Shown in pieces: positions 33,078 to 40,726 of a DNA stretch of 64,000 bases (position 1 is the first letter of the stretch; every line of letters begins with the position of its first letter). The stretch spans positions 2,309,479 through 2,373,478 of the forward strand of contig CP065014.1 in NCBI GenBank assembly GCA_016700335.1. Direction: 5' to 3'. Source of the DNA: Chlorobiota bacterium. Lineage in GTDB: Bacteria; Bacteroidota; Ignavibacteria; OLB7. The notes below the pieces were generated by a model. It worked only from the letters and a program-made list of their open reading frames with translations, searched no databases and was not told the origin of the DNA. The position numbers were made by a program, and so were the translations under genes.

Positions 33078-33308
33078 TTGGTTGTATGTAAATTGAAATG
33101 CAAAAGTAATAAATGTGAAACTTTCTTAAACAAAGAAGTTGATGTCAAACTTTTAAACTCTATTTCTGAGGTTGTTTTTTCTGGTAAATTTATTAATTCA
33201 TCTGATGGTTTTTATATTAATGTTTCTAACATTCCTAATGGATTTTATAATGTTGTTATTAAGGTTGGTGATAAAAGAAGCTTTCAAAAATTAATTGTTG
33301 AGCATTAA
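33078..33308 (+). pseudogene. Orphan T9SS C-terminal sorting-domain fragment, a remnant CTD with no cargo domain
   Basis: 76-aa ORF. Residues 12-76 are 98% identical to the CTD of the BNR protein (34234-36444). No signal peptide and no N-terminal domain. Confidence 0.6.
33111..33308. repeat. Direct repeat copy A (198 bp, 2 mismatches to copy B), covering exactly the T9SS CTD coding segment
   Basis: Base-by-base alignment with 36247-36444. Divergence begins right after the stop codon and right before the CTD start. Confidence 0.9.
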
Positions 33309-33522
33309 GTTTTTTTTATTTTTTAATAGAATAATTTTGTTTTTCATACAATTGTTTTTGTTAAGTTTGATATGTAATTAGTTTTGTTTAATTAAACCTA
33401 TTTAAAGAATAAGATATTTAAACAATAAAATTGTAAAAAGAGTAATTAAAATTTATTACAGATAAATTTATTTTGGAGGAAGAGAATTCATTCTCACTTT
33501 AACTCATATTTTATTTCACATT

Positions 33523-34173
33523 ATGTTTAAGCCTAATTCAATTGCCGTTATTGCGTCGCAGACAGCAGACAGCAGACAGCAGACAGCAGACAGCAGACAG
33601 CTTTTTGCAAAATCATTTGCTTTAATCTTTTTTAGCATTATGATGCTTTCTTTCAATTCTTTTTATTCTAGTTCTCTTTGGGCTCAAGCTGCTCCTTGTA
33701 ATTGTCCCCTTGGTTGGGGTTCTGTTACTTTACTTTTCCCTATTACTTGTGCTAATGTTGAAGTCAATGTTTGTTGTTCTCCGCCTGGCACTTTTCCTCC
33801 CCAAGCTTATATTTGCAATGTTACTGCTCCTTTGGGCGTTTGTAATCCGCCTACTCCTTCAATGTTCCAAGAAATTGCTGATGCTATTGTTGATAGAAAT
33901 CCTTGTGGGTTTCCTTGTAATAATATCCCTTCAGACTTTATTGTTACTGGACCTTGTAGAGCTAAAGTTTCAATCCAAAATATTAATGGAGTTTTAAGAA
34001 ATGTTATTGATTGGGCGGCTGATTCATGTTCTGTTGAGCCTTGTTATCATACTTATAAAGTAACATGTGATGATTTTGGGCATATCACTAAATCTAAAAC
34101 TGGACCTGCACATTCCTCCTGTGATAGAATTCCTACATCCCCTGGTCCTGATTGTTATAATGTTTGTAACTAA
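33523..34173 (+). CDS. Cysteine-rich secreted protein of unknown family, with a heptanucleotide tract in its 5' region
   Basis: Hydrophobic signal-like segment after the repeat-encoded QTADSRQ x3. About 20 Cys in the mature ~170 aa. Strong NNT codon bias (Pro almost all CCT, Ala GCT), unlike the flanking housekeeping genes. Confidence 0.55.
   Translation: MFKPNSIAVIASQTADSRQQTADSRQLFAKSFALIFFSIMMLSFNSFYSSSLWAQAAPCNCPLGWGSVTLLFPITCANVEVNVCCSPPGTFPPQAYICNVTAPLGVCNPPTPSMFQEIADAIVDRNPCGFPCNNIPSDFIVTGPCRAKVSIQNINGVLRNVIDWAADSCSVEPCYHTYKVTCDDFGHITKSKTGPAHSSCDRIPTSPGPDCYNVCN
33558..33601. repeat. Heptanucleotide microsatellite (GCAGACA)x6 plus a partial copy
   Basis: Six perfect tandem 7-nt units counted directly in the sequence. 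The unit length is not a multiple of 3. Confidence 0.95.
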
Positions 34174-34181
34174 CATTTTTG

Positions 34182-34220
34182 CCCAACTTGAAATTATTTT
34201 TTCAAGTTGGGTTTAATTTT
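34182..34220 (+). terminator. Rho-independent terminator between the Cys-rich gene and the BNR gene
   Basis: CCCAACTTGAAA-TTATTTT-TTCAAGTTGGG hairpin, then TTTAATTTTT. Confidence 0.55.
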
Positions 34221-34233
34221 TAACTCTAAACTT

Positions 34234-36444
34234 ATGTGTAAATTTTATATTGTTTTTCTATTAATATTTTTATCGTTTCAAAACCTTAAGTCTCAACAAT
34301 TTTGGTCTAAAACTTACAGTACATATTCAAGTTGTACTATTTCTAATGATAATACATATTATATTGTTGGTGATTTTGGTTTTATTATACGTTCAGTGGA
34401 TTATGGTACTAATTGGAATCTGTTAAATTCTTCTACTTCATTGAATTTAAATTCTATTATTTCTTTTTCAAATAATTCTTTGTTTGTTGTTGGTGATCTC
34501 GGTATTATACTTTCTTCCATTGATAAAGGAAATAGTTGGAAAAATATTCCTATTAACTACAAAAATAACTTAACTTCTGTTTGTTCTTTTGATTCATTAA
34601 ACATTCTAATTGTTGGTGATAGTGGATTGATTTTAAAATCAATAGATGGCGGAATTCACTTTGATAAAGTTAATTCCAATTCAAATAGTAAATTGTTCAA
34701 AATTGTAAAATCTAGTAACCATTCAGCAACAATTATTGGCGATAGTGGTACTATTCTTTACACCTCTAACAAAGGTATTTCATGGGAATCTAAGTTTAAT
34801 TATTTATCTGAATATTTATTTGATATAGATTTTTTTAATGAGCAAATTGGGTCTATTTCTAGTTATCGAGGACTTTTAAGAACTAATGATAGTGGTAAAA
34901 GTTGGTACAATTTAACTCAATCCAATAGTTCATTTTATACAATAAGGCATATTACTAGTGATTCATTAATTAAATTTGATAATTTTCTAAAAATTTCAAA
35001 TGATTCTGGGAAGAATTGGAAAAAAACTAATGATGTGGTTAATTTAGATCAATCAATTTATATTACTTCAACTTCAATAAATGATAATAATTGTCTAATG
35101 GTTGGAGCTCTTATTCTAGTATCTTATGATAAATTTAAATCAAATATTGCTATTTCAAAACTACAAGGCAATGGTATTAATGATTTAATAGCTTTTGATG
35201 ATACTAGTTTGTTTATAGGTCGTGATTTAAATAGCTATGGAGATAGAAGTTTTGATATGGGTTTGACTTGGAAAACTACTAATAGAGGGTTTTTTTCTGT
35301 TGATAAATTTATTCAAATCTCTCAAGATTCTGCTTTTGCAGTAAACTATAGTCATGGGATTTTCAAACCTTATGATTTAAGAATTACGGGTGACAGAGGA
35401 AATACTTGGGTTGCAAATGAAACTAATGTTAATCTTCCAACTAATGACAAAAATTCTTACTCAACTTTTAAAAATCTTTCTTTTGTTAATAAGGTTTCTG
35501 GTATTCTTGCAATTGAGATTAGAGGGGACAATTATGGTTATTTACTATATACACGAGATGGTTGTTTGAACTGGGATACTGCTCATGTTGATAACAACCC
35601 TAATAGAGGTTATTGGGGTCTTCTTTTAGTTAATGAAAAGTTAGGCTTTGCTTCTTCTCTTGATTTAATTAAAAATATTGATTCTTCTTTTACTACTACT
35701 AACAGAATTTACAAAACTATTGATGGGGGGATGAATTGGGTTACTATCAAGCAATTTGTTTCAGATTTTAATGATTCTGTTCATTTTAAAAATTTCTTCT
35801 TTAAAGATTCTTTAGATGGCTTTGCTGTCGGGCAGAATGCCAAACTTGGTGCTGTTCTTCATCATACTACTAATGGTGGTATTGATTGGATTACTACGCA
35901 ATTTAAAGGTGTTAATTCTTTAAATAATGTTAAGTTCTTTAATAATAATATCGGTTTTTTATTAGGTTCTCAAGGCAATTTATTTTCTACTTCTGATGGT
36001 GGTATAAACTGGGTTAAGGAGAAACTCTGGTATGAAGATTTAGTCGATTCTTCTTTTAACTTAGAAGATATTTACATTATGCCTAACAGGAAAACTTTGT
36101 TCTTGAAAATGAGAATTGGAGATCGTGCACGCATTTTCAGAAAAACATTAACAAATCAAATTCCAATTAGTTCTGTTAACGAGCATAAATCTTTCAATAT
36201 AATTTCTGATATTTCTCCTAATCCTACTAATGATTTTGTTAATATTAAATGTGAATCTTTCTTAAACAAAGAAGTTGATGTCAAACTTTTAAACTCTATT
36301 TCTGAGGTTGTTTTTTCTGGTAAATTTATTAATTCATCTGATGGTTTTTATATTAATGTTTCTAACATTCCTAATGGATTTTATAATGTTGTTATTAAGG
36401 CTGGTGATAAAAGAAGCTTTCAAAAATTAATTGTTGAGCATTAA
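34234..36444 (+). CDS. BNR/Asp-box repeat (Ycf48/sortilin-like beta-propeller) protein with a T9SS C-terminal sorting domain
   Basis: At least 12 SxDxGxTW-type Asp-box motifs (SVDYGTNW, SIDKGNSW, TNDSGKSW, TIDGGMNW...). C-terminal CTD. Signal peptide starts at the internal ATG at 34234; the ORF track begins at 34207. Confidence 0.75.
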   Translation: MCKFYIVFLLIFLSFQNLKSQQFWSKTYSTYSSCTISNDNTYYIVGDFGFIIRSVDYGTNWNLLNSSTSLNLNSIISFSNNSLFVVGDLGIILSSIDKGNSWKNIPINYKNNLTSVCSFDSLNILIVGDSGLILKSIDGGIHFDKVNSNSNSKLFKIVKSSNHSATIIGDSGTILYTSNKGISWESKFNYLSEYLFDIDFFNEQIGSISSYRGLLRTNDSGKSWYNLTQSNSSFYTIRHITSDSLIKFDNFLKISNDSGKNWKKTNDVVNLDQSIYITSTSINDNNCLMVGALILVSYDKFKSNIAISKLQGNGINDLIAFDDTSLFIGRDLNSYGDRSFDMGLTWKTTNRGFFSVDKFIQISQDSAFAVNYSHGIFKPYDLRITGDRGNTWVANETNVNLPTNDKNSYSTFKNLSFVNKVSGILAIEIRGDNYGYLLYTRDGCLNWDTAHVDNNPNRGYWGLLLVNEKLGFASSLDLIKNIDSSFTTTNRIYKTIDGGMNWVTIKQFVSDFNDSVHFKNFFFKDSLDGFAVGQNAKLGAVLHHTTNGGIDWITTQFKGVNSLNNVKFFNNNIGFLLGSQGNLFSTSDGGINWVKEKLWYEDLVDSSFNLEDIYIMPNRKTLFLKMRIGDRARIFRKTLTNQIPISSVNEHKSFNIISDISPNPTNDFVNIKCESFLNKEVDVKLLNSISEVVFSGKFINSSDGFYINVSNIPNGFYNVVIKAGDKRSFQKLIVEH
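36247..36444. repeat. Direct repeat copy B (partner of 33111-33308)
   Basis: See copy A. Confidence 0.9.
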
Positions 36445-36465: not shown

Positions 36466-36920
36466 TCCCCGAAGCGCATCTATACGCCGAATTCTGTCTT
36501 CATTAATTTCTTAATGGAGGCAGTCATTTATCTTGACTGATAATTGCTTATCAAGTTCTTTGCCGCCTACCCGAATCCGTTTCAATTAATTTAAAAAGAG
36601 AAAGAAACGAAACTCTTTAAGCTATTTAGCTTTCTCAGATTCTGCATGGCGTTGCTCGGTATGGGGTTTGCACTGCCACAAATGATTACTCATTGTGCGG
36701 TGAGCTCTTACCTCACCATTTCACCCTTATCTCAATAAAATTATTTTATCAAGACGGTATATTTTCTGTTGCACTTTCCGTCACCTCTAAAATAATTTTG
36801 CAATTATAAATTGAATGCCCGGCTGTTAGCCGGCATACATTTCTTTTGATATCGAGTTCGGACGTTCCTCCGTAAGTTGTATAAATACAACTCTCCGGCG
36901 ACTGCCCAATGCACTCCGGT
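36466..36920 (-). ncRNA. rnpB: RNase P RNA, bacterial type A, with AT-rich helix expansions
   Basis: Read on the minus strand: GGGCAGUCGCCG, GGAGGAACGUCCGAACUC (P4 5' strand), GGUGACGGAAAGUGCAACAGAAAA, UAAGGGUGAAAUGGUGAGGUAAGAGCUCACC, and 3' ACAGAAUUCGGCGUAU. P1 pairing is GGAGUGCAU with AUGCGCUUC. Position and order match the E. coli M1 RNA consensus. Confidence 0.85.
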
Positions 36921-39337: not shown

Positions 39338-40597
39338 ATGTCTTTTACTGATGATATATTAAGAGGTAATCAAAGTTCTATAGGTTTTGATGCTAAAACT
39401 TTTTTTATTACAATTGTGTTAATTACAATTGGTTTGGTTTCAATTTATAGCGCAACTTATGAACCTGGTGGATCCCATATATTTTATTCCCAACTTACTT
39501 TTGCATTTGCTGGCATTGTTTTAATGTTAGTTATTGCTTATTTGCCAGAAGGTGTTTTACAATTTTTTGCTTACCCTTTGTATGGTTTAGGTTTGATTTT
39601 ATTATCTGCAGTAATATTTTTTGGGACAATAAGAAATGGGGCTCGAGGATGGTTTGTTTTTGGACCATTATCTTTTCAACCAGCGGAGATTGTGAAATTC
39701 TTTATATTGATTTCGGCCTCAAGAATTGTGGGTCTTGAAGCAAGAAGCCTAAAAAATTGGAGAGATATGGGTTTGCTTTTATTAATTTTTTTAATACCAA
39801 TTGGTCTAATTTTACTTGAACCAGATTTTGGCTCGGCTTCAGTTTATATGGTAATGATGATTGGTATTGGATTATGGGCTGGTGCAGATTTGTTTCTATT
39901 GTTTACATTAGTAGCACCATTAGCTGTAGCTATTTGTGCACTCATAGGGAATAATGAAATGTATATTTGTTTAGGTGTAATTTTAGTTATTATGGTTGCA
40001 TTTAGAAGATCAATTTGGGTCACAGTAACAGGTTTTTTAATTTCAATTTCATCAGGATTTTCTACTGGTTATATTTACCAAAACATTCTTCTACTTCATC
40101 AACAGAACAGAATTAAAACTTTTCTAAATCCAAATTTAGATCCTAAAGGTGCTGGTTATCATGTGCTTCAATCTTTGTTAGCTGTTGGATCTGGAGGACT
40201 GACTGGAAAAGGATTTTTGAAAGGTACTCAAACTCAGTTAAGATATATTCCCGAACAATGGACTGATTTTATTTTTTGTGTTCCTACTGAAGAGTTTGGC
40301 TTAATTGGTGGTGTTGCAGTATTATTATTGTTAGGGACTTTAATTTATTTTGCTATTAATACTGCTCGTAATTTAAGGAATAGATTTGCTTCAACAATTT
40401 GCGTTGGTATAGCAACAATTTTTTTGTATCACACTTGCATTAATATTGGAATGGCAATTGGATTAGTACCTGTTATGGGCATTCCACTCCCTTTTTTATC
40501 AAAAGGTGGTTCGTCTTTAATGTTAAATATGTCTATGGTAGGTTTGTTGATGAATTTTTATAGATTAAGAACTGATGTTAGAAAAATAGATTTATAG
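39338..40597 (+). CDS. FtsW/RodA/SpoVE (SEDS) family peptidoglycan glycosyltransferase
   Basis: Ten-TM topology and SEDS-conserved motifs (PAEIVKF, ...GIPLPFLSKGGSS). Confidence 0.85.
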   Translation: MSFTDDILRGNQSSIGFDAKTFFITIVLITIGLVSIYSATYEPGGSHIFYSQLTFAFAGIVLMLVIAYLPEGVLQFFAYPLYGLGLILLSAVIFFGTIRNGARGWFVFGPLSFQPAEIVKFFILISASRIVGLEARSLKNWRDMGLLLLIFLIPIGLILLEPDFGSASVYMVMMIGIGLWAGADLFLLFTLVAPLAVAICALIGNNEMYICLGVILVIMVAFRRSIWVTVTGFLISISSGFSTGYIYQNILLLHQQNRIKTFLNPNLDPKGAGYHVLQSLLAVGSGGLTGKGFLKGTQTQLRYIPEQWTDFIFCVPTEEFGLIGGVAVLLLLGTLIYFAINTARNLRNRFASTICVGIATIFLYHTCINIGMAIGLVPVMGIPLPFLSKGGSSLMLNMSMVGLLMNFYRLRTDVRKIDL

Positions 40598-40726
40598 ATT
40601 TATAGATTTATAGTTTTAAATTTTAAATTTTATCTAACAACATTCTTTTTTTTTGTAATTCATATTCAAACCATCCCTTTAAAATTCTTTGTATTTTTTT
40701 ATTAATAATCAGCAATTATATAACAT

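Follow-up and report, generated by a model that had tools for sequence, protein, structure and literature searches.

The question raised by this locus was whether a perfect heptanucleotide repeat near the start of a cysteine-rich protein gene acts as a phase-variation switch, as proposed in an initial annotation. The window, by which the whole 64-kb stretch of DNA analysed is meant, was found to contain a heptanucleotide SSR, (GCAGACA)x6 + GC, at 33558-33601 of the forward strand, which is the proposed slippage site. Reading of the sequence gave six full GCAGACA units at 33558-33599 followed by the nucleotides GC. Tandem Repeats Finder described the same interval with a period of 7, 6.3 copies, 100 % matches and a score of 88, the highest among the 71 repeat rows for the window, and found no second tract of this kind in the 64 kb. 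A 14-nt probe of two units, searched with a tolerance of 2 mismatches, gave 5 overlapping matches, all of them within the tract, against an expectation of 0.14 +/- 0.38 from 100 dinucleotide-preserving shuffles, none of which reached 5. The GC content of the window was 28 % (24-34 %) and that of the GCAGACA unit was 57 %, so that the perfect repeat stands out in AT-rich DNA. Six units were also found in eight other independent assemblies (L001 and L005-L011), and the tract is therefore not an error of one assembly. A scan of genome contigs with (GCAGACA)x4 found unrelated taxa among the at least 120 matches listed, and this species was not among them.

The tract was found to start 35 nt past the A of the ATG at 33523 and to occupy codons 12-26 of a 216-codon ORF (33523-34173), which reads through it; none of the three forward frames contained a stop codon within the tract. 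The six perfect 7-nt units and their distance from this ATG, as first annotated, were borne out by the sequence and by Tandem Repeats Finder. The accompanying claim that the units encode QTADSRQ three times upstream of a hydrophobic segment stood for the position, the hydrophobic core (aa 32-42) lying downstream of the tract, but not for the copy number, because 42 nt are 14 codons and encode (QTADSRQ)x2 in the ATG-33523 frame. The locus was found to have the features of a contingency locus in that the repeat is perfect (100 % purity), the unit length is not divisible by 3 and the position is 5′ coding.

The ORF at 33523-34173 of the forward strand was assigned, from the reading frame and the family alignment, to a 216-aa precursor of a predicted secreted Cys-rich protein, the mature part of which contained 160 aa with 16 Cys. 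The exact protein is present in public entries (QQS66014.1, MBL0331416.1, IPP08_09585), where it is listed as hypothetical and assigned to a 'Chlorobiota bacterium' MAG. Hydropathy and the family alignment placed the predicted signal peptide, comprising the K30-proximal part, the hydrophobic core and the c-region (aa 31-56, SFALIFFSIMMLSFNSFYSSSLWAQA), at 33613-33690 of the forward strand. The Kyte-Doolittle maximum (2.71) was found at aa 32-42, FALIFFSIMML, just downstream of the tract; this core is preceded by K30 and followed by SSSLWAQA/AP with the predicted cleavage at AQA/AP, and the family alignment contained a conserved block Q55 / C / CP.GW. The hydropathy profile and the AQA/A motif suggest a Sec-type signal peptide and a secreted product.

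An internal ATG-ATG (M40, M41) was found at 33640-33645 of the forward strand, and no in-frame ATG, GTG or TTG was present between 33523 and 33640. The gene callers chose ATG 33640 in two variant assemblies, L002 and L003 (P0003). The FALIFFSIMML core straddles this codon, so the product from 33640 would have no export signal; the maximum 11-residue hydropathy of the 177-aa product was 0.55 against 2.71 in the full precursor. Since a protein with 16 Cys is unlikely to function if it lacks an export signal, the coding sequence, and within it the N-region of the predicted signal peptide, is the best placement for the tract. The motif TAnnTTTG, which we take to be the Bacteroidota-type -7 promoter motif, had its best match (TAGTTTTG, a consensus match only, with a TTTG 22 nt upstream) at 33379-33386 of the forward strand, with further matches at 33332 and 33362. 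All of these lie upstream of ATG 33523, and the tract would therefore be transcribed. A scan for sigma-70-type promoters gave a number of sites not above that of shuffles.

The consequence of a change in unit number was followed in alleles rebuilt in silico with n = 0-12 units. With n = 0 mod 3 (3, 6, 9 and so on), ATG 33523 (33523-33525, forward strand) was in the frame of the gene and a full precursor of 202 + 7n/3 aa was encoded. With n = 1 mod 3, the ATG frame closed after 25-46 codons (32 aa for the product of n = 4), and two TTG codons in the +1 frame (33542-33544 and 33551-33553, forward strand) came into frame, giving a product that begins (M)PLLRRRQ... and contains the entire signal peptide. 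With n = 2 mod 3, ATG 33640 was the only start left, and its 177-aa product without the signal core is predicted to be the OFF state. A change in unit number was thus found to alter both frame and product in the simulated alleles, with the homologues described below following the same logic, and the annotated expectation that gain or loss of one unit shifts the frame held for every n simulated. The TTG codons are a candidate weak-ON start; if 33542 or 33551 were used for initiation, as their frame and position suggest, the switch could be three-state and not binary. The fallback in the initial annotation, a gene start at about 33640 with the tract in its promoter or leader, was disfavoured, as the product from 33640 is coreless and a distant homologue (L133) has no downstream start.

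Unit number was compared among 12 independent assemblies of the locus, 11 of which were informative, and these included every contig on record for the 90 % cluster of the protein (four members of 216, 215, 177 and 103 aa). Six units were found in the window, in L005-L011 and in L001, a 95.7 % identical relative, whereas four units were found in L002, a MEGAHIT k141 contig. L003 contained three full units with GCAGA joined to AAATC, that is, a 26-nt deletion beginning inside the tract. The contig of L004 (Logan) begins inside the tract and is uninformative on unit number; it contained a 1-nt deletion in the T-run at about 33647. In BLAST comparisons with the window, L002 contained no mismatch in 2609 nt and a single 14-nt gap corresponding to the change from six to four units, L003 (about 4x coverage) contained one mismatch in 2394 nt with 26 gapped bases, and L005-L011 contained 20 substitutions and no indel over about 46 kb together. 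The chance of both length changes in the spanning contigs falling on the 44-nt target was estimated by us at about 3e-4 under uniform indels. Both the 14-nt and the 26-nt loss place the gene in the TTG frame.

The expectation that the unit number would vary across assemblies was confirmed (six in nine assemblies, four in L002, a 26-nt deletion in L003) and the flanks were conserved among these close genomes, the sample being small at 11 informative assemblies. Some of the same observations were counted against the reading as a switch. Exactly six units were present in 9 of the 11 informative assemblies, including the lineage that is 4.3 % diverged, both variants are short-read metagenome contigs, and the lesion in L003 is a deletion and not a clean slippage product. 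The tract is short and apparently not very unstable. No further alleles were found in JGI metagenome contigs, either with the left flank plus one unit or with the family profile.

The family was found to extend beyond this species. Word-indexed protein searches returned only the own cluster, to which the family profile added P0007; reaching the distant relatives required an exhaustive HMMER search. Among 1.84 billion representatives, the family was found to consist of four clusters, three beside the own one, with HMMER identities to the window protein of 60 % (P0005), 50 % (P0006) and 41 % (P0007). Over the full-length alignment, the proteins of contigs L132 (P0007) and L133 (P0006) were 36-39 % identical to the window protein, and P0006 and P0007 were 38 % identical to each other. 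L132 contained a perfect (GGCAACG)x5 at 173-207 and L133 a perfect (GGCAACG)x7 at 613-661, each placed, as in the window, between an upstream ATG with 20-24 codons and the hydrophobic signal segment. The contig L134 (P0005) starts downstream of the tract position, so that the heptamer was seen in both clusters whose 5′ end is on a contig. The units GGCAACG and GCAGACA had at most about 3 of 7 positions in common in the registers compared by eye. The tract was thus found to be pure and kept at the homologous position in orthologues, and since the sequence and number of the units have changed and their period and position have not, this is the signature of a selected contingency locus.

The frame logic of the homologues was also obtained by simulation. 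In L132 the ATG would give an ON state at n = 1 mod 3, and the five units observed put a pre-tract TTG in frame; L133 would be ON at n = 2 mod 3, and its observed seven units correspond to a closed frame. Neither is in frame with its upstream ATG, and both contained a TTG 1-4 nt before the tract, analogous to the TTG codons of the window. All three frame states were therefore found in the family: the ATG frame in the window, the TTG frame in L002, L003 and L132, and the closed frame in L133. In L133 the stretch from the tract to the mature domain was free of ATG, GTG and TTG, the first ATG lying inside the mature domain past two conserved Cys, and this protein can have a signal peptide only if the tract is translated. 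L132 and L133 were most alike ahead of the ATG (78 % identity), less so between ATG and tract (66 %) and least in the coding sequence of the mature part (51 %), and the N-terminal peptides were similar. By these alignments conservation is higher in the 5′ expression module than in the protein, and a conserved 5′ module with a divergent protein is a familiar pattern in phase-variable surface-protein families. The block conserved upstream of L132 and L133 matched nothing in Rfam and tRNA searches.

No relatives of the Cys-rich protein were found in Pfam, NCBIfam or the PDB. The gene is real and constrained, as the family alignment contained 14 invariant Cys, dN/dS against the 95.7 % relative was about 0.5, and an AlphaFold model was obtained. 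The model from three sequences was poor (pLDDT 52.7), whereas five sequences gave a pLDDT of 83.8 and a pTM of 0.82 for a domain of the alpha+beta type made up of one helix and about nine strands. A phage origin was considered and rejected, as no relative was found among viral contigs.

The neighbours were found to be chromosomal housekeeping genes: mazG and serS lie upstream on the minus strand, which also contains the RNase P RNA (36467-36917). The Cys-rich gene is followed on the forward strand by a terminator-like hairpin at 34181-34212 (a 13-bp stem, then a T-rich tail), 9 nt before the ATG of a partner gene at 34222-36444 (forward strand). The latter encodes a BNR / Ycf48 / sortilin-like beta-propeller with a T9SS C-terminal sorting domain. 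The adjacency of the Cys-rich gene and the BNR / sortilin-like gene was kept in L132 and L134. A further GCAGACA x6 tract was observed in Ca. Kapaibacterium (L060), placed 81 nt upstream of the canonical MKK... signal-peptide start of a T9SS cargo gene; the L060 protein was found to have no relation to the Cys-rich family (hhalign probability 0.1 %).

Taken together, the tract is probably a slippage-driven translational phase-variation switch, that is, a contingency-locus SSR in the 5′ coding region. Slipped-strand mispairing at replication would add or remove 7-nt units, and as 7 cannot be divided by 3, the gene body would move to another frame relative to ATG 33523 with each step. At n = 0 mod 3, including the observed six units, the full precursor would be made and exported; at n = 1 mod 3, TTG 33542 or 33551 alone would be in frame, perhaps as a weak ON state; at n = 2 mod 3, initiation would be left to the internal ATG 33640 alone, and its product would have no hydrophobic signal core, which is the OFF state. 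The N-region presumably tolerates 7-aa insertions, so ON alleles of differing length would stay functional. We infer that switching would be frequent and reversible within populations, and that it may be adaptive, for example as an escape from phage, predators or other surface-directed pressure.

The explanation that competes most closely, although unlikely, is that the tract is a neutral, tolerated coding microsatellite and a mutational hotspot, the variants being loss-of-function alleles of a dispensable orphan gene. The constancy of six units in 9 of 11 informative assemblies, the 95.7 % relative included, is what such a tract might show, and so are the inactivating lesions that did not arise by slippage (the 26-nt deletion of L003 and the 1-nt deletion in the T-run of L004), the fairly high dN/dS of about 0.5 and the tiny and sporadic family. 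A neutral repeat is, however, expected to decay by point mutation, yet perfect heptamers (42/42, 35/35 and 49/49 nt) with differing units were found at the same site in three lineages at 50-60 % protein divergence. The period was always the frame-shifting 7 and never 3, 6 or 9, and the 5′ module shared by L132 and L133 was better conserved than their mature protein.

It is improbable that the true start is downstream, at ATG 33640 or similar, with a tract that tunes transcription or translation from a leader or promoter, in the manner of hmw1A/hmw2A or of a regulatory upstream ORF. The choice of ATG 33640 by the gene callers in L002 and L003 agrees with such a start, the distance of 81 nt in L060 makes a leader position possible for tracts of this kind, and re-initiation is conceivable in out-of-frame alleles, where the short ORF from ATG 33523 stops before ATG 33640. 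Against this, the 33640 product contains neither the positively charged N-region nor the hydrophobic core, L133 contained no start codon at all between tract and mature domain, and three lineages keep the ATG frame open 12-24 codons into the tract in AT-rich, stop-rich DNA. The similar N-terminal peptides of L132 and L133 and the candidate promoter motifs upstream of ATG 33523 also argue for translation of the tract. Still less probable is a real tract whose differences in copy number are artefacts of assembly or sequencing, as might be suspected from the roughly 4x coverage and odd junction of L003, from the alternative paths taken by assemblers near the locus in L007, and from the break of the Logan contig L004 inside the tract. 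Such a break is expected for k = 31 on a 42-nt repeat. L002, on the other hand, was built with k = 141, which exceeds the whole tract, so that reads spanned the tract there. A heptamer repeat of 42 nt is easily covered by one Illumina read, eight other assemblies from different assemblers agree on six units, and the five and seven units of L132 and L133 belong to distinct organisms.

The translational switch is accordingly the reading carried forward here, and a wider one that includes the homologues and L060 is offered tentatively, as it is rather doubtful. According to this wider reading, a secreted, disulfide-rich family, always paired with a T9SS beta-propeller cargo, would have kept a period-7 hypermutable tract in the N-region of its signal peptide over deep divergence while replacing the unit (GCAGACA in the window, GGCAACG in L132 and L133), with ATG and TTG starts giving a three-state switch. 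Together with L060, this might represent an SSR 'phasome' for secreted proteins in free-living Chlorobiota / Kapabacteria-like bacteria. If true, it would place an SSR phasome in an FCB lineage and a habitat (activated sludge) where almost all other known phase variation is due to DNA invertases.

To our knowledge, SSR-driven phase variation has been documented almost entirely in host-associated pathogens. A switch at this locus would extend contingency loci to environmental lineages, the host being an uncultured, free-living bacterium of wastewater (activated sludge), and would be a clean natural example of selection acting on mutability itself and not on the peptide encoded. The disulfide-rich orphan, for which the model is confident and no relative was found in the PDB, and its T9SS partner would then be probable targets of fluctuating selection, for example by phage or grazers.

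Among the known systems, the locus was compared with the opa genes of Neisseria, which were reportedly described by Stern et al. in 1986 as containing a CTCTT pentanucleotide coding repeat in the signal-peptide region. The likeness consists of a repeat unit not divisible by 3 in the leader-peptide region, translational ON/OFF control, and a conserved 5′ module with a divergent mature part. The opa unit is a pentamer that encodes the hydrophobic core, whereas the unit here is a heptamer in the hydrophilic N-region; the opa genes form a multigene family within a single genome, whereas one locus was read here, and the proteins are unrelated. The lic1 locus of Haemophilus influenzae is said, after Weiser et al., to contain (CAAT)n and alternative start codons. 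The starts in two frames upstream of the present tract could likewise give strong, weak and off states (ATG 33523, TTG 33542/33551 and the closed frame), whereas the lic1 unit is a tetramer, the use of TTG here is deduced from the frame, and the gene functions are unrelated.

The nearest analogue is neuO of E. coli K1, in which the heptamer AAGACTC in the 5′ coding sequence gives a full-length product only if the number of units is divisible by 3, and neuO tracts contain 3-53 units with 66 % of complete genomes in the OFF state (PMC13001214). The present tract resembles neuO in the 7-nt unit in the 5′ coding sequence, the divisible-by-3 rule, the 7-aa peptide repeat and the proposed slippage mechanism. 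NeuO differs as a cytoplasmic O-acetyltransferase of prophage CUS-3 with no homology to the Cys-rich protein. The neuO tracts are also much longer and more variable, whereas six units, a mostly ON state and a signal-peptide N-region were found here, in a free-living environmental Chlorobiota bacterium and not in a pathogen or prophage. Membership of the NeuO family was rejected, as no Pfam, NCBIfam or PDB match and no viral-contig relative were found and the neighbours are housekeeping genes; the locus works like neuO only.

Heptamers are also known from H. influenzae, where they are present in the hmw1A/hmw2A promoters and, as AACAACC, at genes for TonB-dependent receptors, with variation in number between strains (PMC2651432). 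The likeness lies in heptanucleotide SSRs at surface-protein genes with a unit number that varies between strains, whereas transcription is modulated by the hmw tracts from a promoter position about 100 bp upstream, the present tract being in coding sequence. Assignment as an hmw-type promoter heptamer was rejected, as the core downstream of the tract straddles the only downstream ATG and L133 has no downstream start. In the work of Lin and Kussell, the enrichment of SSRs near N-termini is presented as a signature of phase variation that has been tuned (PMC3315296). Phase variation in the Bacteroidota/Chlorobiota superphylum is known mainly from invertible promoters and invertases (PMC11868660). 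The locus works like the known SSR switches and is homologous to none of them; the mechanism is textbook, and the host, an environmental Chlorobiota bacterium with the gene paired with a T9SS cargo gene, is unusual.

The Cys-rich gene (33523-34173, + strand), with the (GCAGACA)x6 tract (33558-33601) in its 5′ part, and the downstream BNR gene (34222-36444, + strand), encoding a beta-propeller protein with a T9SS C-terminal sorting domain, were found to be flanked on both sides in the window by a 202-nt direct repeat (33107-33308 and 36243-36444; also present at 1404-1605 of L007, a JGI contig of the same locus), the two window copies of which differ at 3 positions. In the DNA upstream of the Cys-rich gene, the 3′-terminal part of the BNR gene, coding for the T9SS sorting domain, is present a second time as a fragment. 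Directly downstream of the BNR gene is an RNase P RNA of the bacterial class A type (36467-36917, - strand; 226 bits).

A strong terminator-like hairpin with a 13-bp stem and a T-rich tail was found at 34181-34212, followed by the ATG of the BNR gene just 9 nt after its end, and the space 3′ of the hairpin was too small for the gene to have its own promoter. The expression of the BNR gene may be reliant on read-through past the hairpin and may therefore be reliant on the state of the Cys-rich gene.

In L007, position 36444 was fused directly to position 33309 via a hybrid repeat with a copy-B-like 5′ end and a copy-A-like 3′ end; this junction would fit the 3136-bp unit being tandemly duplicated or excised as a circle, or else a path switch by the assembler. 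The Logan contig L004 contained a 1-nt deletion at about position 76 (window ~33647), in the T-run just 3′ of the ATG at 33640, and the contig L003 contained a 26-nt non-slippage deletion (304-308) across the 3′ end of the heptamer tract. Both lesions were found in the same Cys-rich gene, in DNA otherwise identical to that of the window, which suggests either frequent inactivation of the gene or a tendency of these low-coverage contigs to contain errors.

The octanucleotide repeat (ATAGATTT)x4.1 (40586-40618; 96 % matches) was found to rank second in regularity among the short tandem repeats of the window. It covers the 3′ end of an FtsW-like ORF (39338-40597) and the adjoining intergenic region, and no length difference was found between the window and L005, another assembly's contig of the locus.

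The contigs of two distant homologues of the Cys-rich protein, L132 (1-172) and L133 (430-612), were found to share 78 % identity in the non-coding DNA 5′ of the homologue genes, including the near-exact block ATGCCGCGACTTAACAACCAAAGTTTGTTTTT, for which Rfam and tRNA searches gave no match accounting for it. The identity of the mature coding regions was only 51 % (DNA) and 38 % (protein).

Tracts of at least 4 GCAGACA units were found at a minimum of 120 loci in many phyla in the genome_contigs scan. Among the matches listed, about 7 loci per MAG were present in Omnitrophota JACQRD, Thermoanaerobaculia CAZKID, Actinomycetota MAG194 and Acidimicrobiia JAOZMA, and tracts of 13-17 units were present in Treponema and Rodentibacter. 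For listed loci of GC <=55 % and ORFs of >=150 aa, 19 of 36 tracts were placed at -150 to +100 nt from an ORF start, compared with 20 % of random positions (p ~1e-5, with crude ORF calling). In Ca. Kapaibacterium, the 5′ end of an unrelated Cys-rich gene for a T9SS cargo was found to carry GCAGACA x6 (L060 627-668).
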